Of a stretch of 64,000 nt of DNA, positions 1 through 12,620 are shown piece by piece. Source of the DNA: Bdellovibrionota bacterium (GTDB taxonomy: Bacteria; Bdellovibrionota_C; UBA2361; OMII01); assembly GCA_044356215.1 (NCBI GenBank), contig JBIKWQ010000003.1, positions 953 to 64,952 on the forward strand, read 5' to 3'. Position 1 is the first letter of the stretch; every line of letters begins with the position of its first letter. The translations under genes and the position numbers were made by a program. A model generated the notes under the pieces. That model saw only the letters and a list, made by a program, of their open reading frames with translations, ran no database searches and was not told where the DNA came from.

Positions 1-2345
1 TCCGCGAATACCGGAGGGGATACTCCGATACGAGCCGCCGCGTACTTAAGGTGCACGCGTAGACGTGGGAATAAGAGATCATATCCACGCTCAAAAGCGA
101 GAACTAATCCGAGCGGGCCACGACACAACGCGCGGATCTCGTCGATCTGGTCCGCGCTCACCCGAGACGCCGTAAGCAGACTCTCACGAGCTATAAAGAC
201 CTCTGGCATCAGCACCAGCGACATCCGCTCAATAAGTTCGTCCTCGAGCATAGGAGCCTCATGGGCCTTTAATATGAACTCATCCAAGGCGATAAAGTGG
301 ACGCGCTCAAATGATTCCCTAATAAACCGCACAAAAGTGGGGGGAAGATCGCTGAGCTCCTCGATATTAGATAGATCTTCGTGAATAGCGTTTACTAGTG
401 GCTGCAGTTCCACTCCCGCCAGCAGCAAATCAGCCATTTGAAACGCCTCCGATGAGAGACAGTTCCTAAGAGCATCACGCAGCGTCATGCGTGGATCCGT
501 CAATTCGAAGAAAGCTCTCTCGACCCTATTCCTCTGGTCATAAGTTAAACCACTTAAGAAATCTAAAACTGGGCGATCAAGTTCACCTACATCTGCATCC
601 TGGTCGATTAACTGCGCTAAGCTTACAGCGTCCTCCTCGTCATCCGCGCGACTCTTGTACTCCCACTGCCACACCGTTGGCTCGGGTTCGACTCCGCGAA
701 ATCGCGCTAAGACATCAATAGTTAATGACCAGCGGCCGTTTCCGCCCATATACCTATCGATTAATACGACGCGTCCCTGCTCGCTTAAAGAAGGAGACAC
801 CCGCTCTAATCTTCTCTTTATGACATCTTCCAAATTATCACCAAAGACTATCTGGTAAGCTTGCTGAACCGCCAAACACTCTCTCGGCTCTCGAAAATGG
901 AGTGGGGCTATGATCTCAAATAGATCTCCAGACACCGCGATCCGCTCCGCTATCACAAGCGCCACGCGGCGAGGATCAAATACGCGCCTCGAGATAAAAA
1001 GCCGGGGATCAAGCTCGTACCCGTAAACCTCTTGTAGGGCTCTGTTTGTGGAGTTAAAACGCTCGCTCGATAAGGCATCTACCCTCTCGGCTATTAATTC
1101 AAATGAATTAAGCACTCTGTGATGAATCGACATCCGATCACGCCACATCCGGCGCTTCTTGAAATGCCTTAAGAATGGTCCGATTCCTTGAGTGTGGTCA
1201 CGATCCACGGAATCTCGCGGATCGCTTAATGTGTCCTCGATCTCGTCTAGGTGCGTCTTTGGGAAGAGTATATGATGAATAGTCTCCGCCTCGAGATGTG
1301 GTGACCAGCCCTTTAAAACATCCGCGAGTCGCTCCTGATCAGCCTGAGAGAATATCCTCCTGACATGGGCCTCTAGCCCCTCGTCGCTATCTAAGGCATC
1401 TGGCCCAGCTAATTCAAGATACATCCGCTTAACAAGCGACATCTCCTCTACGCTCCGGCCCAAGAAGAGATATCGTAGCGCCCTCGCGTCATCACGGGCT
1501 CTAAAGGCCTGCGCGCGCTTCTGCTCTACTACCTCATTCTTACCGATACTCTTGCGAGCTGGCGCTTTAGCCTCACTAGTCTGCGCGTTTAAAAGGGCGT
1601 GCGCCTGCTTTGCTAGGCTTTTGAAGGGGATCTTTAAGAATTCATCACGAACAGCGACTAGCTGACTCTCTGTGCAATCAAGTAGGATATCAGCGATTCG
1701 TTGCTCCTTGTCAGCGTGAGGCCCGTTGTAAAGCACCCAAAGACTCTCAGCTACTTTTTCAACATCCATCCCGTGGGCTATCCGAGCGATCCGCTCCTCT
1801 CCTTCATGGCCAACTCGCTTTATGATCTGGTAAGAGATCTCAGGTCGCTCTCCTCGATCTCTAATCGGAGTGTAATAGTGCTCTGTAAAGAAATCGTTCG
1901 CTCGGTCTAGAATCTCCTTGGACTCTCGCGGAGATCTATCGGACAAAACCACATTAAATGCGCTTAAATAAAGATCTATATCAGTTTCGCGGCTCTTCTG
2001 AGCGAGTTGATAGATCTGATGAGCTAAAGCTTCCGCCAACTCTTGATGCTTCGCCTCATACTCTTGGCGCTCTTGGCGCGATCTTCTGCGCGGTGGATCC
2101 TGAGGAACAGGTGGAGCCTTCGCGATCTCTCGGATTCTATCTAGACCACCCTTAACTGAGAGTGGTCGATAGAACTGATCAAAGACCTCTCCTTCATACT
2201 GTAATCTGGCCGCGGAGGCCGCCTCTCGCTCGCGCTCTAAAGCCTCCTCGGCCTCTCTTCTCGCGAGATCTTCCACAGGGCCACTCTTAGGGGCGAGGAT
2301 CCCTTTCTTAAAAACGATCTTCTTGTCGCCTGATCCGTCTACCAT
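1..2345 (-). CDS. large hypothetical protein, N-terminal part (at least 780 aa in window; C-terminus lies beyond the window start); partner of the upstream tandem AAA+ ATPase
   Basis: The reverse-strand frame is open without stops from ATG at 2345-2343 through position 1. A GAGG Shine-Dalgarno lies about 9 nt upstream, and the start is 44 bp after the ATPase stop. My own translation begins MVDGSGDKKIVFKKGILAPKSGPVEDLARREAEEALERE. The ORF is missing from the supplied track because its stop codon is outside the window. The small plus-strand ORFs at 491-2155 sit inside it. I recognised no family. Confidence 0.6.
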   Translation of the reverse strand, partial: MVDGSGDKKIVFKKGILAPKSGPVEDLARREAEEALEREREAASAARLQYEGEVFDQFYRPLSVKGGLDRIREIAKAPPVPQDPPRRRSRQERQEYEAKHQELAEALAHQIYQLAQKSRETDIDLYLSAFNVVLSDRSPRESKEILDRANDFFTEHYYTPIRDRGERPEISYQIIKRVGHEGEERIARIAHGMDVEKVAESLWVLYNGPHADKEQRIADILLDCTESQLVAVRDEFLKIPFKSLAKQAHALLNAQTSEAKAPARKSIGKNEVVEQKRAQAFRARDDARALRYLFLGRSVEEMSLVKRMYLELAGPDALDSDEGLEAHVRRIFSQADQERLADVLKGWSPHLEAETIHHILFPKTHLDEIEDTLSDPRDSVDRDHTQGIGPFLRHFKKRRMWRDRMSIHHRVLNSFELIAERVDALSSERFNSTNRALQEVYGYELDPRLFISRRVFDPRRVALVIAERIAVSGDLFEIIAPLHFREPRECLAVQQAYQIVFGDNLEDVIKRRLERVSPSLSEQGRVVLIDRYMGGNGRWSLTIDVLARFRGVEPEPTVWQWEYKSRADDEEDAVSLAQLIDQDADVGELDRPVLDFLSGLTYDQRNRVERAFFELTDPRMTLRDALRNCLSSEAFQMADLLLAGVELQPLVNAIHEDLSNIEELSDLPPTFVRFIRESFERVHFIALDEFILKAHEAPMLEDELIERMSLVLMPEVFIARESLLTASRVSADQIDEIRALCRGPLGLVLAFERGYDLLFPRLRVHLKYAAARIGVSPPVFA

Positions 2346-2389
2346 TAATTGAAACCTCGTCGCCGCCAGCCAAACGCTCTTCAGTTAAA

Positions 2390-4582
2390 CTAGGCGTACT
2401 CCATTTCCATCCAAGCGCGCTCTCGTCGATCTCTATCGGGATCCTCAACGATATCCTGTAATATTAAACGCCCGAGTCTCGCGTATATTACATCAATCGT
2501 GGCGTTTTTTCCGTCTAGATGGAGTGGATCAAGGAAATCCGGATGGAATCTAAGCATATGATCCATTACCGCTCGATCGTGCTCTGATTTGGCGATCATA
2601 GCCCAAACGTTCTTTCCTACCCAGGCAAAATCCGCTGAATTCCAATCTAGCATCCGTTGAACGTAGTGTCCGATAGAGAGCAATTCCTCTGGAGCTGGTG
2701 GGCGCTCGAATTGATACGTTCCCTGGCTATTACGCATCCTATCAGCTATCCAAACCAAGTTATTAACCAACTGAGGAAGACAGTGTTTAGAGAGTACGCG
2801 CCTCTCAAGGGTTGAATCTAGGTAGCTCATCCGCATCGGATGAACACGTCGTAAGAATGCATCATCTAGTCTGCGATTGAAGTTTTTGGTGAAAATCACC
2901 AGAAGATTATCTACGTTACAGTCTATCGGAGGACGAGATTCCAACCAGATTCGGGCATCTTGGATCGGTCCTAGAAAGAACGTATCGATATGACCATCTA
3001 CTTTATCGATCTCATCTATTAGTAAGATCACCGGCTGATTCTGAGATTTCAAAAAGGCTCGCGACAGGATTCCAAGATTCATCAACTTCTCTTTGGCTTG
3101 CGTCTCCTGGCCCGCCATCGATGACGCGATCGCCAAAGCTGAGGGAACCTCGATCAGATGCGCAGTGTTCATCCCATTGTAACAGCTAAGACACATCAAC
3201 TCCGCGCCCGTCGCTTTAGCCAGGCATTTCGCCAAAAAGCTCTTACCGCAACCAGAGGGTCCCTCAAGGAGGATCGCTCGTACCCTGTCAGATGGAGATG
3301 TTAAAAGTAACGACATCTGAGTAGCTGTAAAGCGCGCGCATTGATATCCAACCGCGGCCAATCGCCGAGACATCTCCTCTGGATCAGAGAACTGAGTGAG
3401 CCCTATCTTTTCGGGCTTATAGGCTCTCCCGCGACGCTTCGCGTCTGGATCATCAATCACACCCTCTAACAGCCACCGACCTAAGCGGGCATAGATCTGC
3501 TCAATCGTCGCGTTTCTGTTGTCTGGCACCAATGGATCGGTGAAATCAGGATGATAACGCAGAAGCTGCTCAAAGACTGTGCGGTCATGCTCAGACTTTG
3601 CCAACATATAGAAGAGATTCTTCCCTACGAAGGCGTAATCGATCAGATCCCAGCTTAAAAGATGTGTTAAATAATGTGCCGCTTTTAACAACTCCTCAGG
3701 AGCCGGCGGCCGCTCGAAAGGATAGCTACCATCTGAGCCGCGCATTAAATCAGCTACGCGAATGAGATTCTCCGCTAATTTTGGCTTACAGTGCGGCGCT
3801 AAAACTCTGCGCTCTAAAGCGGAATCCATGAACTTCATGCGCAACGGATGCACGCGTCGCAGTAGCGCCTCGTTAATTGGGCGCTCGAAGTTCTTGGTGA
3901 ACATGATTAAAAGATTGTCTAAGTTAGCGTCGATCGCCTCACCAGACTCACGCCAAACTCTACCATCTTGAATCGGCCCCAAGAAAAACGTATCGATCGC
4001 CACATCAACTTTATCTAACTCGTCGATCAGCAATATAACCGGCTTCTGTCGCGACATCGCGAAGGCCTTAGAGATCGGCCCAAGATTCATCAAGTCATCG
4101 ACTTTCTGGTCAGAAGCGCGGCCTGTCATCGCGTTTACCATTCCCAGTGTCGACGGCATCTCGATTAAGTGTTGCAGGTTCATCCCCTTGAAACACTGGA
4201 TACACATCAACTCGGCGCCAGTAATCTTGGCTAACGATTTAGCCATGAAGCTCTTACCGCAACCGGATGGTCCCTCTAACAAGATACACTTAACACTGTT
4301 AACTCTGGTGTTGAGCAACAGCGACATCTGAACAGCGTAAAACGGTAAACAGTGATAGCCGACCTCTCCTAACTTAATCTCAAGCTCCTCAGGGGTTCCA
4401 ACGTCCTTAAATCCGACCTTTTCTGGAGCGTAATTAGAGTGGAAATTGGGGTTAACGATCCCAAGCTCGCTACCATCAGTCTTGGGCTCAAGATCATTAG
4501 CCGCGCCGCGATTACGGAACGTAATCTTGCGTTGTGGGGCTCCTGCGGTGCTTTCAGAGTTGTTGTCGTCTTCTAACGCCAT
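2390..4582 (-). CDS. tandem-duplicated AAA+ ATPase (MoxR/CbbQ/NorQ-like AAA_5 type; two complete ATPase units)
   Basis: 730 aa. Two roughly 365-aa halves are clearly homologous to each other. Each half has a Walker A motif (LLEGPSGCGKSF[ML]AK), a Walker B motif (ILLIDE[LI]DKVD) and a sensor region (NLL[IV][MI]FTKNF). The start is ATG at 4582-4580. Confidence 0.8.
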   Translation of the reverse strand: MALEDDNNSESTAGAPQRKITFRNRGAANDLEPKTDGSELGIVNPNFHSNYAPEKVGFKDVGTPEELEIKLGEVGYHCLPFYAVQMSLLLNTRVNSVKCILLEGPSGCGKSFMAKSLAKITGAELMCIQCFKGMNLQHLIEMPSTLGMVNAMTGRASDQKVDDLMNLGPISKAFAMSRQKPVILLIDELDKVDVAIDTFFLGPIQDGRVWRESGEAIDANLDNLLIMFTKNFERPINEALLRRVHPLRMKFMDSALERRVLAPHCKPKLAENLIRVADLMRGSDGSYPFERPPAPEELLKAAHYLTHLLSWDLIDYAFVGKNLFYMLAKSEHDRTVFEQLLRYHPDFTDPLVPDNRNATIEQIYARLGRWLLEGVIDDPDAKRRGRAYKPEKIGLTQFSDPEEMSRRLAAVGYQCARFTATQMSLLLTSPSDRVRAILLEGPSGCGKSFLAKCLAKATGAELMCLSCYNGMNTAHLIEVPSALAIASSMAGQETQAKEKLMNLGILSRAFLKSQNQPVILLIDEIDKVDGHIDTFFLGPIQDARIWLESRPPIDCNVDNLLVIFTKNFNRRLDDAFLRRVHPMRMSYLDSTLERRVLSKHCLPQLVNNLVWIADRMRNSQGTYQFERPPAPEELLSIGHYVQRMLDWNSADFAWVGKNVWAMIAKSEHDRAVMDHMLRFHPDFLDPLHLDGKNATIDVIYARLGRLILQDIVEDPDRDRRERAWMEMEYA

Positions 4583-4613
4583 AATCTTCTTCTTCAGTCC
4601 CTATATGATGTAA

Positions 4614-4630
4614 GTCCACAATAAGTGGAC
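4614..4630. promoter_or_regulatory. palindrome GTCCAC-N5-GTGGAC 32-48 bp upstream of the ATPase start; candidate operator
   Basis: Perfect 6-bp inverted repeat with a 5-bp spacer, read directly from the sequence. It lies in the promoter region of the minus-strand ATPase gene. Confidence 0.25.
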
Positions 4631-4763
4631 AAATGCTTCTTATTACTTTGCAGGGCGGGATATATATCTGTAATTATTGAACTTATCTTTTAGTTGGCGC
4701 ATAACTACAACTCCCTTTCATTTTAGCTGAAGCGAACAGACTCGTTCTTGAGATGATATCATC

Positions 4764-5108
4764 ATGACTGATAATCCAAATACCGCGCGTACAGACCGCC
4801 CCTACCGTTCTAAGAGAACCCAGAGGGGAGAGGCGGAGCTAATGACCTTTGGTATAGTGGTAGTGCTAGCCATTCTGTTCTCAGGCACCGTTTGGGTTCT
4901 TAATTGGGTCAAGCACAACAAGCACTCAGAGCGCGAAGCGCGAAAGCTTGCCGCTATCCTTGAGAAGAAGAAAAGTCAATTCTCAGGGCGTCGCGACCCC
5001 GCTGAGTATCTAGTCTTCTGCGACAAACCAGCGTGGTCTCTTCTTCAGACTAAATACAACTGCGAAGTCCTTCCAGAATCGTATGGGGAGCTGTTTTTGA
5101 TGCCCTAG
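4764..5108 (+). CDS. small hypothetical membrane protein (one predicted TM helix)
   Basis: 114-aa ORF with a hydrophobic stretch FGIVVVLAILFSGTVWVLNWV. It is followed within a few bp by a GC hairpin (GCTCGG..CCGAGC). I recognised no homology, so the coding status is uncertain. Confidence 0.3.
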   Translation: MTDNPNTARTDRPYRSKRTQRGEAELMTFGIVVVLAILFSGTVWVLNWVKHNKHSEREARKLAAILEKKKSQFSGRRDPAEYLVFCDKPAWSLLQTKYNCEVLPESYGELFLMP

Positions 5109-5202
5109 GCTCGGCTCCGAGCGTCAAAAGCTCGGTATCTCGATGTTTTGTTAGTAACGGCGCGTTCGCGCTGTTACCGATAGGGTGTCGCAGTTCTTTA
5201 TC

Positions 5203-5288
5203 ACCACAGAGGACGCAGAGGACACAGAGAACGGCCATTTTATCGGCAATTATAAGGTTTTCTCTGTGTCCTCTGCGTCCTCTGTGGT
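5203..5288. repeat. perfect 29-bp inverted repeat (ACCACAGAGGACGCAGAGGACACAGAGAA / reverse complement) around a 27-nt loop; large hairpin or cruciform-capable element
   Basis: Arms at 5203-5231 and 5260-5288 are exact reverse complements. No confident CDS overlaps them. A 29-mer inverted repeat is far beyond chance expectation in 64 kb. Confidence 0.6.
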
Positions 5289-5389
5289 AAAAAATATTTT
5301 ACTAATTGTCTCAGCAACTTACCAAAAACACTGCGACGCCCTGTGTTACCGAGCAAATAATCGCTTAGGCGAGGTCTTGCCTCGGCGCT

Positions 5390-5431
5390 AAGGCAAACAT
5401 CGCCGCAGCGATGTTTTGCCTTTCTTTATTC
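5390..5431 (+). terminator. rho-independent terminator (about 13-bp stem, 4-nt loop, then a TCTTTATT U-rich tail)
   Basis: The hairpin is AAGGCAAACATCGC-cgca-GCGATGTTTTGCCTT followed by tttctttatt. On the minus strand it has no U-tail, so it should act in the plus direction. It sits in a region with no confident CDS. Confidence 0.5.
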
Positions 5432-6152
5432 TAGCCCAGAATCTTCGATGCTGCTCTCCGCATTCTCAGCCGCACCCAGAGCCACCGGCGGAGGGGGGTC
5501 CGCAATCGGGACTTGATTCGCTACCGTCCCCTGCTCATGTGGTGTTATCACGACCAACACAATCGGCAGGCACGGTAAGTCCACCAACGCTGTCGCGTTT
5601 CGCTGCTCTACATAATTTGAGATTAACCACTGGAAATCGGGGTCGCCCAGTTCTTGAGAAAAAATAGCTCTAGCCATATATAACGCTCCTCCATGATCGC
5701 CGCGCCGAATCAACTACCTCCAAACGCGACAAGCGCTCACAACGTTTAACCACCTACTCTTCCACTAATCGTCGTTAGGCGGTATTTTGCGACACCAATC
5801 CTTGTGTCATGCGCCAAAAATTTACTTCTAAAACCAGGCTTAGAGGATCCGATCCCGCCGCCTTAAAGAGTTATTCGGCCTCAGTGCCTCCGCACTTAAG
5901 CTATTAGAAGTTCTAGCGGAAAATACCAAAACAGCAGAACCACCTGTAACCATTACACAAAATAGGTAGTATGGAAGATTCCAGTAGATAATAATTCTGC
6001 TTTAACCACGTTTAAATTACCGTGGCGCTGTGGGGCCATTTCTCCACTTTTCCAAGGGATAGATTGCATCAAACACCCCTAACCCTTGAGAAATATCCAT
6101 CAGAACCGTACACTGACCGTCCTCAGAAAAATGCCCTAAATCAAAGAAGTAA

Positions 6153-7481
6153 ATGCCCAGGAAAGATATTGAACCAGCAGTAGAGAGCGGAAACAACAAG
6201 GACCGTAGCTCACCGGCTATTTACGAGGCTGAACAGCATACGATCAAGAAGGGCGATATTGACGAAGATGCCCGCAAGGTTGTTTACCGATTGCAGCGCG
6301 CTGGATTCAAAGCATACATAGTCGGTGGTGGCGTTCGCGACATCCTCCTTGGTAAAACACCCAAAGACTTTGATATCTCAACTGACGCGACTCCGCGGCA
6401 GATAAAAGCTCTTTTTAGAAACTGTCGCATTATCGGTCGCCGCTTTAAATTAGCTCACATATTCTTCGGCAGCGGAAAGATCCTTGAGGTATCAACTTTC
6501 CGCGATACCGCAGATATTCCAGAGCCCGCCGAACCTGATACGAGCGCGGGGACAGTCGCGACTCCGATGGTTACAAACGATAATATTTACGGGACTGAGC
6601 AGACCGATGCCTTACGCAGAGATCTAACGATAAACGGTCTATTTCTTGATGTATCGACGATGCAGATCATTGATTACGTTGATGGGATGCTGGATCTACA
6701 ACAGGGAACTATTCGAATCATCGGCGACCCAGACCTTAGGTTTAGCGAAGATCCTGTTCGTATGCTCCGCGCTGTTCGACACTCCGCTAGAAATGGATTT
6801 CACATCGAGCCTGGTTGCTGGTCCTCTATCTTGAGGAACTCTCAATTGATCGCGCAGTGCTCACAGGTGCGCGTATTTGATGAGCTACGCAAAGATGTAA
6901 GCTCCGGATGTTTCTTAACGATCCTCTCGCTGCTTGGGGAAACAGGTCTACTTGAGTACATCCTACCCGAGCTATTAGAGAACAATAGTCGCTTACTTTC
7001 CGCTGAAAGTGATTGTAGCGTTTGTCTCGAAAAGGTCGATGATTTAGTGAATGAGGGCGGAGAGGTTTCAGCTACCACCGTCTTCGCTATTTTAGCGATG
7101 TTCATTGCGGGGGATTCGATCTGGCTGCGTGACCTTGCTGAATCTATTCCTAGCGCGCCTGATCTCGGTCAGAGATTAGGCGCGTGCTTCACACGGCTAA
7201 CAGTGCCGCGCAAAGAGCGTGAGCGGATTCAGATCCTATTAAGTATGTGGGGACGACTGCGAGATGCGTCTCCGAAATCTTTCAAGCCTGGCTCCTACAA
7301 GCGCTCGGCCCTTCTGCCCGACTTAATATCACTAGTCGAGATTACCCAGTTTACTCGAGAGGATTCCCAGAGACTGAACTTGTTAAAGGAGATGGCCGAT
7401 AGAGAATCGGATCAGCATAATCATTCCGAATACGAACGGAAATCAACCCCGGCAAGACGTAGGCAAAGCGGACCTAGATAG
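6153..7481 (+). CDS. pcnB: poly(A) polymerase I (class II nucleotidyltransferase)
   Basis: It carries the [17 protein letters not shown] nucleotidyltransferase motif and the PcnB-diagnostic [20 protein letters not shown] segment. The length is 442 aa. Confidence 0.8.
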
Positions 7482-7485
7482 TTTT

Positions 7486-8217
7486 ATGTCGTCAATCACT
7501 CTTCAAACTAACAACGTGACCAAAAGCTATGGTGGGCGTAAGGTTGTAAACGGCGTATCAGTTTCAGTTAAATCTGGAGAGATAGTCGGTCTCCTGGGAC
7601 CAAACGGCGCGGGCAAAACAACCACCTTCTACATGTGTGTTGGACTAACCGCTCCTGACAGCGGAAGCGTTACATTAGCGGACCGCGATATCACTCGTGA
7701 GCCGATGTACTCACGCGCCCGCCTGGGGATCGGTTATCTGCCGCAAGAAGCCTCAGTTTTTCGCAAACTATCAGTGCGCGATAATATATTAGCTATCCTG
7801 GAGACGATGGATTTTGATTCCAAAGACGCTAGGGAAAGCCGACTACGGGAGCTTCTTGATGAGCTTGGGCTAAAGCACGTTGAGCACAGCATGGCGAGCG
7901 CCCTCTCTGGAGGTGAACGTCGCAGAGTCGAGATTAGCCGATGTTTAGCGCGCAATCCGATGTTCATCTTGCTCGATGAGCCGTTCGCTGGAATCGATCC
8001 ATTAGCGATTAAGGATATCCAAGATATCGTGTCGGCGCTGAAGAACAAAGGAATCGGGGTTTTGATTACTGACCACAACGTGCGAGAGACTCTCGGCATC
8101 TGCCACCGCTCTTACATACTGGTTGATGGCAAGGTTCTTGAGGAGGGAACGCCAGAGCACATCGCCTCATCAGAGAAGGCTCGTCGTTATTATTTGGGCG
8201 GTGATTTTAAACTCTAG
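7486..8217 (+). CDS. lptB: LPS export ABC transporter ATP-binding protein
   Basis: It has Walker A (GPNGAGKTT), the ABC signature ([11 protein letters not shown]) and Walker B (ILLDEP). It is 243 aa and lies directly upstream of rpoN, which is the conserved lptB-rpoN arrangement. Confidence 0.9.
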
Positions 8218-8422
8218 GGATCAGGGGTGAAACCCGTCTATCGGGACCCTCTATCTATACTATTGAAAACACCCATTATTTCAGATGCTTAGAGCGGACC
8301 GGCATCACATGGGACACTTTTTGCATAAGTATTTCACTTTAGCCGCCCCTTCTGGCTCACTTCGATCATCTATATCTCTAAGAATGAGTTAAAGTGGTTT
8401 AGCACTGAAGCAAACTGGCGTT

Positions 8423-9892
8423 ATGGGCTTAGAGAACAAGTTACTTCAAAAAATGGGGCAATCGCTCTTGATGACCCCACAGCTTCAGCAAGCTATCAAG
8501 CTGCTTCAGCTTGGACGCTTAGAGTATCAAGACGCGATCGAACGTGAGCTTTTAGAGAACCCATTCCTTGAAGAGATGCCAGAGGAGTTTGAGGGACGAG
8601 GGACACCACAATCTCCAGATCAGAATGATCCAGCCCCCACGGTTCTATCCGGGCCGCTGCAGAGCAATGAATCTACGCAAACCAGATCAGACTCACCCGA
8701 GCCACGTGCCGACTGGGATGACTACGCCGACTCCTTCACGGACTATCAGGGGTCCGCCTCAATTAAGGGGCACTCAAATTTCGACGATCGTCAACCGCCC
8801 GAGGTGGTTTCCACTCAATCAGAGACACTAGAGGCACATCTCCTCAGCCAGGTAAGAATGCAGGAGTTGACGAATCAAGACGCTCTGATAGCCAGACACA
8901 TCGCAGGAAACCTAAATCGTGATGGCTTATTAGAATGCGGCTATGGGGAGATAGCTGACGCCTGCTCTTGCGCGGCTGAGGATGTTATAGCGATCGCTGA
9001 CATAATGAGATTTATGGACCCTATCGGGTGCTGCACACGCTCACTTCAAGAGTGTTTATTAACTCAGATCGAGGCTATGGGATTGGCGGATGGTTTAGAG
9101 TTTAGGTTAATCAGGGATCACTTAGATAAACTAGAGAAACGGAAATACGAGGCGATCGCTAAGACCGAGGGTGTAACTCTTGATGCGATCAGTCGCGCCA
9201 TCAACACAATTAAATCGCTTGAGCCTCGACCTGGCCGACAATTCTCTGAGGAAACTGTGCGCTACATAGTACCAGACGCTTACGTTATTAAGGTAGGCAA
9301 TGACTTTGTTGTCTCATTAAACGAGGACGGCGTACCTAAGTTAAGGATTAATTCAACTTACTCCGATTTACTCAAGAATCCGGCCTATTCATCAGGTGAT
9401 AACAAAACCTACCTAAGCGAAAGAGCTCGCGCGGCTTCATGGTTAATTAAGAGCATTCAACAGCGTCAACAAACGATCTATCGGGTCACCGAAAGTATCG
9501 TTAAATTTCAGCGCGCTTTCTTCGAGAACGGGGTGTCTCACCTTAAACCTCTGGTATTGAAGGACGTCGCGGATGATATCGGGATGCACGAATCTACAGT
9601 TAGTAGAGTAACGACAGAAAAGTACATTCACACACCGCAAGGAACTTTTGAACTTAAATTCTTCTTTACCTCAAGTATTAAAACAGCTTCCGGAGGGGAT
9701 GTTTCCTCCTCTTCTGTAAAAGAGGAGATCAAGCAGATTATAGCCCAAGAATCACCTAGCAATCCGATTAGCGACCAACAAATTGTAACAATTTTAAAAG
9801 CTAAAAAGATCGATATCGCTCGGCGCACAGTCGCTAAGTATCGAGAGACGCTAGGAATTCCTTCTTCATCATTACGAAAGACGATCTTGTAG
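8423..9892 (+). CDS. rpoN: RNA polymerase sigma-54 factor
   Basis: It has the N-terminal Gln/Leu-rich region, a C-terminal HTH and the RpoN box (ARRTVAKYR). The length is 489 aa. Confidence 0.95.
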   Translation: MGLENKLLQKMGQSLLMTPQLQQAIKLLQLGRLEYQDAIERELLENPFLEEMPEEFEGRGTPQSPDQNDPAPTVLSGPLQSNESTQTRSDSPEPRADWDDYADSFTDYQGSASIKGHSNFDDRQPPEVVSTQSETLEAHLLSQVRMQELTNQDALIARHIAGNLNRDGLLECGYGEIADACSCAAEDVIAIADIMRFMDPIGCCTRSLQECLLTQIEAMGLADGLEFRLIRDHLDKLEKRKYEAIAKTEGVTLDAISRAINTIKSLEPRPGRQFSEETVRYIVPDAYVIKVGNDFVVSLNEDGVPKLRINSTYSDLLKNPAYSSGDNKTYLSERARAASWLIKSIQQRQQTIYRVTESIVKFQRAFFENGVSHLKPLVLKDVADDIGMHESTVSRVTTEKYIHTPQGTFELKFFFTSSIKTASGGDVSSSSVKEEIKQIIAQESPSNPISDQQIVTILKAKKIDIARRTVAKYRETLGIPSSSLRKTIL

Positions 9893-10106
9893 CTGATTAT
9901 GAAATATCCAATAAGCATGAGAGAAAAAATGCAGTCGATAAAAATTAACGCTGCTGCTGCCACTTTCCGTGCTATCATTAAATGAGCGAGGCGATTGCTC
10001 ACCTCCAAGGGGAGCAGATAAATCAGATGAATCTACAAACGCCGTTTAAAGACATCTATCCGCGCCCCTCTCTCATGGCGCAAAGATCTTCACTCTGTTA
10101 CGATCT

Positions 10107-10448
10107 ATGTCTAAGCTTACCGAAGGAGGAAGGATGAGCGAACCAAAGAAAGCAGTACACGTTAATATAGCTTTTTTAAACCTCGACTCGACTGAGGCGA
10201 TCAAACAGTACGCCACAGATAAAGTCAGCAACTGTGTGCGCAAATTCGCGCATCAGGACACCGAGGCTCACGTTGTGCTCAAAGTAGAGAAGTCCAGACA
10301 GATAGCGGAGCTATCGATGCACCTATCAGGTCATGATTTCTTTGTTAAGGAGGAGAGCCAAAACCTATACGCCTCGATCGATATGTTGACCGATGCGTTG
10401 AGCAATCAACTGCGAAAACACAAAGAAAAAGTCACTAGTCACCATTGA
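10107..10448 (+). CDS. hpf: ribosome hibernation promoting factor / sigma-54 modulation protein
   Basis: It lies immediately downstream of rpoN. The core VHVNIAFLNLDSTEAIKQYATDKVSNCVRKF matches the HPF/YfiA fold. The true start may be the internal Met (MSEPKK, about 10134). Confidence 0.8.
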   Translation: MSKLTEGGRMSEPKKAVHVNIAFLNLDSTEAIKQYATDKVSNCVRKFAHQDTEAHVVLKVEKSRQIAELSMHLSGHDFFVKEESQNLYASIDMLTDALSNQLRKHKEKVTSHH

Positions 10449-11341
10449 GCGCCGAAAATCTCGTCGAACACTTTGACTCACTAGTACTCGTTACGGGTGT
10501 ATCTGGAGCTGGCAAATCTACCGCCATGCACCTACTCTCGGATACGGGTTACTATGTGGTCGACAACCTGCCAGTGCCACTTCTTGAGAGCTTCCTTGAG
10601 TTTTCTGGAGCGGCTGGAGCGCGCTACCGCAAAACCGCACTCCTCCTTGATGTTGATACCGCGGATAGTCAGCGTCTTTTGATGCCACTACTTGAAGCGA
10701 GAAAGGCTACCGGGGGCAAGGTTAGGCTAGTTTTCCTGGATGCCGAAACATCTGTTGTCGTGAGGAGGTATAGCGAAACGCGCAGGCCTCATCCGGCCTT
10801 CGATCCCGCGCAAGATGACTCGATTCAGGACGCTATTTTTCGAGAACGTGAGCGGCTGCAGGCGATCAAAGAACGGGCCGATCTAGTGCTCGATACATCC
10901 GACTGCACAGTGCATGAACTCAAGAGGCAACTAAGAGAATTCCTCTCTAGCCTTGGGGTCTCGGGTGGCTACGCCATGAGGGTCAACTTCCTCTCTTTTG
11001 GATTCAAGTACGGCGCCCCGATCGATTGCGATCTTATAGCGGATGTTAGATTCCTTACGAATCCCCATTTTGTTGACTCTTTACGAGATCTTACCGGAAC
11101 TGACGATTCGGTAAGGGAATATGTTTTTAAATCACCAGACGCGGCGGAGTTTGTAAATCGCTACAGCGATCTACTTAAGTTTCTCCTGCCCAAATATCAA
11201 TTCGAGGGAAAAGCCTATCTAAATATAGGTATCGGATGTACCGGGGGAAAGCACAGATCAGTGGCGATCGCTGAGGCTCTCGTCAAAACGCTAGACATGC
11301 TGCCTTATTTGGTAAGCGTTAGACATCGCGACATCGGGTGA
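10445..11341 (+). CDS. rapZ: RNase adapter protein RapZ (YhbJ)
   Basis: It has an N-terminal P-loop ([13 protein letters not shown]) and is 298 aa. It sits in the conserved rpoN-hpf-rapZ neighbourhood and overlaps the hpf stop by 4 nt. Confidence 0.85.
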
Positions 11342-11444
11342 CACAAATCCAACGGATTTCTGCCTCTTTTTACTTGCTCAAATCACTTTATCAGGCTTAT
11401 TCTTCCGAAAACCAAGTTTTGGAATAAACCGCAAAGGAGACACA

Positions 11445-12620
11445 ATGGCACTTAAGGACTTTTTATTCACTTCTGAATCTGTAGGCGAAGGACACCCTGA
11501 TAAAGTTGCCGATCAACTGAGCGATACTGTACTAGACGAGTTTCTAAAGCACGATCCGAAGTCACGCGTAGCGTGCGAGGCGCTAGTAAAGAACGATGTA
11601 GTTATCTTGGCCGGAGAGATCACCTCCTCACACACAATCAACTATGAGAGGTTAGCTAGATCGGTTATCGCCGATATCGGCTACACAGAGCCAGCTCTTG
11701 GATTCGATTCACAGAGCTGCTCAGTAATGACCTTCATGAGCCAGCAGTCGAGCGATATCAGCATGGGAGTGAATGAGCATGAGGGGTTGCATAAGGAGCA
11801 AGGAGCAGGAGATCAGGGCTTAATGTTTGGGTTCGCGTGCGACGAGACACCTGAGCTAATGCCGCTTCCAATAGCGCTCTCTCATCAGATCATGAGAGCT
11901 CTCTCGAGAGCTCGTAGAAGTGAAAGCGGATCATTTTTAAAGCCTGACGCTAAAAGCCAGGTAACGGTTGAGTACAGAGATGGACGACCTTATGCGGTCA
12001 ATACAGTTGTAGTGTCATCGCAGCACGCCGAGGAAACCTCCTTAAAGCAGGTTGAGGAGTACATCGTCGACGAGATAGTTAAAAATGTGATCCCGAAAAA
12101 TCTACTCACCGATAAGACTAAATATATGATTAATCCTACTGGCCGATTCGTTGTTGGCGGTCCAGTTGGAGATTGCGGTCTAACTGGCCGTAAGATCATC
12201 GTTGACTCATACGGCGGATATAGCCGCCACGGTGGTGGAGCTTTCTCAGGTAAGGATCCGTCAAAGGTTGATCGTTCCGCCGCGTATGCAGCGCGTTACA
12301 TCGCTAAGAATGTCGTGGCCGCTGGATTAGCCGAGCGGTGCGAGGTGCAGGTAGCTTACGCGATCGGAGTAGCTAAGCCGGTGTCTGTTTACGTGAACAC
12401 CTTCGGAACCGGCAAGGTTAATGAAGAGACGATCGTTAAGGCTATCGACCGAGTCTTTGACCTGACTCCGCGTGGAATTATTGAGACTTTGGACCTATTA
12501 AAGCCGATCTACAGAGCCACAGCAGCTTATGGTCACTTCGGAAGAGAGCCCGGCCAAGACGGAAGCTTCTCGTGGGAGAGGACTAACAAGGTGGAAGAGC
12601 TGAAGGCCGCGTTAAAGTAG
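11445..12620 (+). CDS. metK: S-adenosylmethionine synthetase
   Basis: It has the canonical N-terminus [17 protein letters not shown] and the [19 protein letters not shown] loop. It is 391 aa with a good RBS (AAGGAGA). Confidence 0.95.

Follow-up and report, generated by a model that had tools for sequence, protein, structure and literature searches.

In a stretch of 64,000 nucleotides from contig JBIKWQ010000003.1 of a Bdellovibrionota bacterium, here called the window, the gene at 2390..4582 on the minus strand codes for an ATPase of 730 amino acids that consists of two complete, consecutive AAA+ modules of the MoxR type. The doubling goes back almost certainly to one ancient in-frame tandem event with a unit of 337 codons. 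The explanation we favour as a whole, and hold to be on balance probable, is an ancient double ATPase with two active modules, of which three chains would form one ring of six modules, functionally coupled to an annexin-fold protein encoded by the next gene.

A preliminary description of the gene, made from the sequence alone, had proposed an internal tandem duplication with co-linear halves and had named a self-alignment as a check, with a lack of significant similarity as the outcome that would speak against it. BLASTP of residues 1-385 against 386-730 revealed 197 identities in 334 positions (59%) and 75% positives with one gap (E=6e-154), so the co-linear duplication was borne out. Its boundaries had been misplaced at residues 1-365 and 366-730. 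A hidden Markov model built from both halves detected two abutting domains, 51-386 and 388-722, and translation of the exact coordinates presented a clean tandem duplication of 337 codons, with unit C (from Y388 to A723) directly after unit N (from Y51 to A387). The sequence blocks quoted for the two halves are present, but the FHPDF ending is not shared: unit N has YHPDFTDPL, and unit C alone has FHPDFLDPL. Walker A, Walker B, sensor-1 and an arginine pair in both units confirmed the AAA+ ATPase, and the Walker motifs are intact in each half as had been claimed (GPSGCGKS twice, LLIDELDK and LLIDEIDK). The gene has the following features:

2390..4582, minus strand: double ATPase gene, 730 amino acids, complete in the list of open reading frames (ORFs), stop codon at 2390-2392
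4433..4582, minus strand: N-terminal extension, residues 1-50, unique, predicted to be disordered, with a conserved VNPNFHSN at its end
3422..4432, minus strand: unit N, residues 51-387 (Y51-A387), with AAA+ alpha/beta core, helix-2 insert, pre-sensor-1 hairpin, lid and a helical extension of ~85 amino acids
2414..3421, minus strand: unit C, residues 388-723 (Y388-A723), second full copy of the module, translation checked
2393..2413, minus strand: C-terminal tail WMEMEYA, 7 amino acids, an AW..EY ending being present also in single-unit relatives
4250..4273, minus strand: Walker A of unit N, GPSGCGKS with K110; G104, G109 and K110 invariant in 113/113 relatives
4010..4033, minus strand: Walker B of unit N, LLIDELDK with D187 and E188, from translation and alignment
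3890-3901, minus strand: sensor-1 of unit N, FTKN (N231), invariant
3854..3859, minus strand: arginine pair R242 R243 of unit N, putative arginine finger, invariant in 113/113 relatives
3239..3262, minus strand: Walker A of unit C, GPSGCGKS with K447, from translation and alignment
3002..3025, minus strand: Walker B of unit C, LLIDEIDK with D523 and E524, from translation and alignment
2882-2893, minus strand: sensor-1 of unit C, FTKN (N567), invariant
2846..2851, minus strand: arginine pair R578 R579 of unit C, from translation and alignment, invariant

A search of 5.8 billion proteins yielded 257 relatives, and the best 120 were analysed for their architecture. Each of these, being 57-100% identical to the window protein, comprised exactly two abutting units; the N-terminal extension, 50 to 270 amino acids in length, was the sole part that varied. 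The named relatives were from metagenome-assembled genomes of uncultured Bdellovibrionota or 'delta proteobacterium', several of them from lake and river samples. The identical protein of 730 amino acids (P0001) is on record from two other contigs, the longest of 80,465 bases, and near-identical proteins (P0002, P0003) stem from further contigs. Among 113 full-length double proteins (226 units) the mean identity was 70% between N units, 74% between C units and 59% between N and C units. The nearest neighbour of each unit was of its own type (226/226), and the neighbour-joining tree presented the split between N and C in 48 of 50 bootstrap replicates. Since N units group with N and C units with C, one duplication took place before the family diversified, without concerted evolution. 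Several long blocks are strikingly alike between the halves, as would be found after a recent duplication, in an assembly artefact or in a repeat homogenised by gene conversion. The probability of such an origin is negligible. The DNA of the halves is 60% identical, yet the third codon positions only 39%, thus the duplication is old and no artefact of assembly. Down to ~57% identity the same architecture recurs in over 110 relatives drawn from numerous independent assemblies, and the separate N and C clades rule out the concerted evolution that gene conversion implies. Purifying selection has preserved the double architecture in a lineage of uncultured, mostly freshwater Bdellovibrionota.

The protein is MoxR-type by fold and motifs and departs from that type in its architecture of two modules and in its adjacent partner. 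The Pfam models AAA_5 (75 bits, cutoff 22) and AAA each matched two stretches of the double ATPase. For both units the best NCBIfam model was NF047784, 'MadB family AAA-type ATPase', at 121.2 bits against a curated cutoff of 475, a score that does not make them members; the single-unit and ~300-residue relatives described below reached 60-93 bits on this model. A sequence search of the PDB gave weak, P-loop-centred matches with midasin as the best (E 1.4e-7) and was uninformative, so the fold was compared instead, and solved MoxR proteins were nearest to the module. The AlphaFold2 model, built from 46 family members, had a mean predicted local distance difference test score (pLDDT) of 80 and a predicted template modelling score (pTM) of 0.60. 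In this model both units carry the helix-2 insert and the pre-sensor-1 beta-hairpin, which are hallmarks of the MoxR class: in unit N, secondary structure assignment with DSSP placed two strands (141-143 and 165-167) together with helices in the interval from beta2 to beta3, and a hairpin (208-218) ahead of beta4, with equivalent elements in unit C. Behind the AAA+ core each unit continues in a helical lid and a further helical region of ~85 residues. A coil of ~14 residues (387-400) joins the units, and the N-terminal extension has pLDDT values <50 at residues 1-31 and 40-49.

The glycines and the lysine of Walker A (G/G/K), the D/E of Walker B, the sensor-1 asparagine, the arginine pair and an RPPAPEE motif did not vary in either unit across the 113 proteins. 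The sensor-1 and arginine-finger roles are putative, being deduced from the place of these residues in the model and in the alignment. At a conservation of >=90%, 123 columns held the same residue in both units, against just 2 that were conserved but different; therefore the same strong constraint acts on both modules. Because every catalytic motif is retained in each, both modules probably bind and hydrolyse ATP. A second paralogue of the double ATPase was not found within the window. An assignment to defence systems was rejected: the PADLOC matches were generic and partial (AAA types such as TRIP13 and IetA), and the partner had none.

Comparison with known systems places the protein apart from each of them. 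CbbQ and NorQ, MoxR-class proteins of the CGN subfamily (PDB 6l1q, 9qh4), have one module of ~255-270 amino acids per chain and an adjacent gene for a VWA/MIDAS adaptor (CbbO, NorD), whereas the window protein fuses two modules and has an all-alpha annexin-fold neighbour without VWA domain. The helical extension of ~85 amino acids is extra in each window unit, and the identity to CbbQ/NorQ is 15-16%. The MoxR class in general (CbbQ/NorQ/RavA) forms homo-hexamers of chains with one module instead of two. MadB (NF047784), which of all named sequence families scored best with both units (121 bits), has a single module and an adjacent 'MadC family VWA protein' (NF047783), the window protein two modules and no MadC/VWA neighbour. 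Midasin (Rea1/Mdn1) and the dynein heavy chains are eukaryotic and carry six diverged modules, a whole ring per chain; the window protein has two modules of 59% identity, and their placement side by side in a ring is a proposal. Type II AAA+ proteins (ClpB/Hsp104, ClpA, p97/Cdc48, NSF) likewise contain two AAA+ modules with nucleotide-binding motifs per chain. Their D1 and D2 modules are from other clades (classical or HCLR), have usually a different origin and form stacked rings, while the window modules stem from one internal duplication, are near-identical copies of the MoxR class and do not classify as classical or HCLR. In a literature search of incomplete coverage, no account of a tandem MoxR-class ATPase turned up.

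Single-unit relatives were obtained with a profile of the unit. Among 1.84 billion representatives 28 proteins scored below E=1e-30, namely two further doubles (P0121, P0122), fragments, and the full-length single-unit proteins P0123-P0127 (390-469 amino acids); below these 28 the scores fell sharply to AAA+ proteins of ~300 amino acids. In a metagenome scan relatives were found by an alignment query and none by the single-protein query P0123. In total ~18 single-unit proteins were collected. Their genes are complete and situated mid-contig (L025; L026 on a 261-kb contig), with unrelated, variable neighbours and no annexin-fold partner. The proteins have an acidic N-terminal extension and the AW..EY tail of the window protein, the ends of P0123-P0126 being AWKNNEYF, AWEQIENY and similar. 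A phylogeny of the half-domains against single-unit MoxR/CbbQ proteins had also been suggested in the preliminary description. N and C units separated (48/50, as above), and the single-unit relatives grouped with C and not outside N+C. In trees rooted with the ~300-residue outgroups they were monophyletic in 160/200 replicates and grouped with the C units in 148-155/200. The single-unit proteins as the simple pre-duplication ancestor were not supported, an N+C clade excluding them being recovered in 0/200 replicates. That they are recombinant chimeras of N and C was rejected: N-type and C-type states were interleaved at nine diagnostic positions, with no switch point. We read this branching as a near-trichotomy of N units, C units and single-unit proteins. 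Either the N module was lost very early in the single-unit clade, or this clade branched off about the time of the duplication; under the latter, late-branching alternative a slightly faster rate of N misleads the distance tree. Under either reading the family as sampled is no older than the duplication.

The distant relatives of ~300 amino acids are MadB-like (302 bits), and in 32 loci a VWA_CoxE/'MadC' gene of ~467 amino acids was next downstream; these two genes are the classical MoxR-VWA pair. Among loci L027-L095 from soil and other metagenomes, 18 had a recurrent protein of variable length and without Pfam or NCBIfam match ahead of the MadB-like gene, presumably 'MadA'. No paper explaining the names 'MadB/MadC' was found in the literature search. 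P0143, a low-GC-looking protein of 1012 amino acids from the wider MadB-like clade, has two AAA+ modules ~280 amino acids apart; as an independent two-module protein it shows that such fusions recur in the wider clade.

The second element of the explanation is the gene downstream of the double ATPase:

1..2345, minus strand: partner gene, first 781 codons of a protein of 1054 amino acids, all-alpha annexin-fold repeat protein, running off the left end of the window
2346..2389, minus strand: spacer of 44 nucleotides between ATPase gene and partner gene, with a Shine-Dalgarno-like GAGG 9 nucleotides ahead of the partner ATG

The two genes are an operon-like pair, and a scan for terminators between 2200 and 6200 reported none within the spacer. 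The full-length partner (P0271, 1054 amino acids) has a conserved, disordered and basic N-terminus (KKIVFKK). Its family comprises ~100 clusters annotated as 'hypothetical proteins', with a length of ~1050 amino acids in almost every case. In the sub-clade of the window every related locus of sufficient extent (12/12) has the partner gene directly behind that of the double ATPase, and the gap measured 22-87 nucleotides in the loci read (window, L006, L008, L019). The partner evolves faster than the ATPase, with identities of 47-62% to the L006 copy compared to 79-92% to the window copy for the ATPase. By its fold it is an annexin-repeat protein (five-helix units of ~70 amino acids). With Pfam PF00191 (cutoff 25) the part inside the window scored 21.0 bits and the L006 orthologue 25.3 bits, and a precomputed PF00191 match exists in some, not all, members of the partner family. 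Classical annexins have ~320 amino acids and four repeats, compared to 1054 amino acids in the partner, and their motif for calcium binding (type II) consists of GxGT with an acidic residue ~38 residues further on; GxGT was absent from P0271 and from 50 of 54 partner-family members. A survey of bacterial annexins does not cover proteins of the ~1050-residue partner type (PMC3894181). A hidden VWA domain in the partner was rejected, as the confident model is all-alpha without beta-strands and no VWA Pfam match was obtained. No VWA/MIDAS gene adjoins the double ATPase, the downstream protein being all-alpha and the upstream ORF one of 114 amino acids; this result covers the flanking genes and not the remainder of the genome. 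Because the distant ~300-residue relatives carry a VWA_CoxE/'MadC' neighbour, the window lineage has lost its adjacent VWA gene, and one sub-clade has gained an annexin-fold neighbour. The strict adjacency in this one sub-clade argues for a functional coupling of the double ATPase to the annexin-fold protein there, and only there, which we consider somewhat more probable than not.

In the proposed mechanism three chains would close into a single ring of six modules in which N and C alternate, so that the ATP sites of each module type would be completed by the arginine pair of the other. In the sub-clade of the window this ring would act on, or be targeted by, the co-transcribed annexin-fold repeat protein of 1054 amino acids. 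The latter would stand in for the VWA adaptor normally used by MoxR ATPases, and it could be a substrate, an adaptor or a membrane anchor. The single ring of three chains, the trimer of dimers of the preliminary description, is the geometry we prefer by analogy, although its probability falls a little short of one half. It is favoured because solved MoxR proteins are single-layer hexamers and because midasin and dynein, classed with MoxR, chain their modules within one ring: MoxR proteins fall, like the dynein families, into clade 7 and form hexameric rings (PMC9976466), and in midasin and dynein all six AAA+ modules are arranged in tandem as one ring (PMC4047620). A further argument comes from the divergent double P0122 (705 amino acids, NCBI 'AAA family ATPase [bacterium]'). 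Its unit N is devoid of the helix-2 insert and has lost Walker B (LLIEDIDA) and sensor-1 (TKG), but has retained Walker A and the arginine pair. Arginines kept in a module with a dying ATP site are expected if they serve the still-active C site. In another protein, P0400, a deletion around Walker B of the C module was observed, either real or an artefact of gene calling.

Six chains could instead build two stacked homotypic rings, N on C, with twelve modules as in ClpB, p97 and NSF. Most known two-module AAA+ chains stack, Foldseek with the full model retrieved chains of p97, ClpA and ClpC as readily as dynein, the coil of ~14 residues between the units (387-400) permits either geometry, and each unit holds a complete, self-sufficient set of motifs, as homotypic rings need. 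Against this stand the MoxR class of the modules, whose multi-module representatives midasin and dynein are concatenations within a ring, the poor superposition of the monomer model on stacked templates (p97 and ClpA chains, template modelling score (TM) 0.19-0.30), and the arginine pair in unit N of P0122, which is hard to explain if it serves dead N sites only. We consider stacked rings the less likely arrangement. A packing of the two modules within one chain, which as monomer, dimer or open spiral would be an ATP-driven switch or clamp on the partner, appears improbable. Some members of the AAA+ superfamily work as switches rather than closed rings, and the moderate pTM is compatible with such a geometry; however, the solved MoxR members among the top matches (CbbQ, NorQ) are all hexamers, and the strict conservation of the trans-acting arginines in both modules points to ATP sites between modules as in a ring. 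The single ring of three chains and its coupling to the partner have weaknesses of their own, and the following observations count against them. The inter-module geometry of the AlphaFold2 model is of moderate quality (pTM 0.60) and matched no two-module template; superposition of the two modules on dynein and Mdn1 was poor as well, and the model fits neither class of template (TM 0.19-0.30); the P0122 argument comes from one sequence; and the doubles P0098 and P0116 (~60% identity) and the single-unit relatives have no annexin-fold neighbour, so the ATPase is not partner-dependent throughout the family.

The surroundings of divergent doubles differ. P0116 is located directly after ftsA-ftsZ and P0098 after lpxI, both without annexin-fold partner. 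Such divergent doubles, at L097 7001-9418 and L096 7001-9376, reside in core-gene surroundings; one ends a division and cell-wall cluster directly after ftsA-ftsZ, the other follows the lipid A genes lpxA/lpxI. In a lake metagenome (L023 3-9986) a double of 811 amino acids overlaps by 4 nucleotides the end of a gene for a protein of 611 amino acids without Pfam match, which is preceded by a GH94 gene of >1841 amino acids (cellobiose/chitobiose phosphorylase-like, of the cyclic glucan synthase type). This locus may represent a different partner set.

Upstream of the ATPase gene of the window, an ORF for 114 amino acids at 4764-5108 on the plus strand is divergently oriented. Its product has a hydrophobic stretch and weak LapA/FliL-like matches only, and the DNA is 72-75% conserved in L001, L002 and L004, therefore this is probably a real gene for a small membrane protein. 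The 1.5 kb between the ATPase gene and pcnB are poor in ORFs and contain at ~5549-5696 a block of ~70-150 nucleotides that is 71-77% conserved in L002, L003 and L013. No convincing ORF and no Rfam match was found in this block, which may represent a regulatory region, a small gene or an RNA of an unknown type. The Rfam scan of 1..12000 gave no match, and a tRNA scan of the whole 64-kb window detected no tRNA genes. At 6153-12620 on the plus strand follow genes for a poly(A) polymerase/CCA-adding-type enzyme, lptB, rpoN, hpf, rapZ and metK, named by reading their translations. With these housekeeping flanks the ATPase pair is in a core chromosomal region, not in a mobile element.

MoxR ATPases are widespread motors with a chaperone-like role and are poorly understood; those with solved structures have one module, form hexamers and depend on a VWA adaptor. 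Here the whole module has been doubled with both copies intact, in a MoxR-class motor without adjacent VWA partner. The family is a natural experiment on how concatenated rings like those of midasin and dynein could arise from a homo-oligomer, and material for comparison exists in the single-unit relatives and in one lineage with a decaying N module. If the single ring of three chains is true, the fixed alternation of two module types would permit a clean mutational dissection of the communication between subunits. With the annexin-fold neighbour, a functional connection of an AAA+ motor to a bacterial protein of this fold becomes accessible to experiment; to our knowledge, the role of annexin-fold proteins in bacteria is not known. 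A bolder reading, which we regard as rather unlikely, takes the double as a living two-module intermediate between homo-hexameric MoxR proteins and rings of the midasin/dynein type. It would be a pseudo-hexamer of three chains whose N and C modules begin to specialise and whose VWA adaptor was swapped for a giant annexin-repeat scaffold without calcium motif, together an ATP-driven, membrane-associated remodelling machine. As leads, the geometry of the ring and the annexin-fold protein next door attract most, and if the double is such an intermediate ring, the Bdellovibrionota would own an ATP-driven membrane-associated remodelling machine of an undescribed kind.
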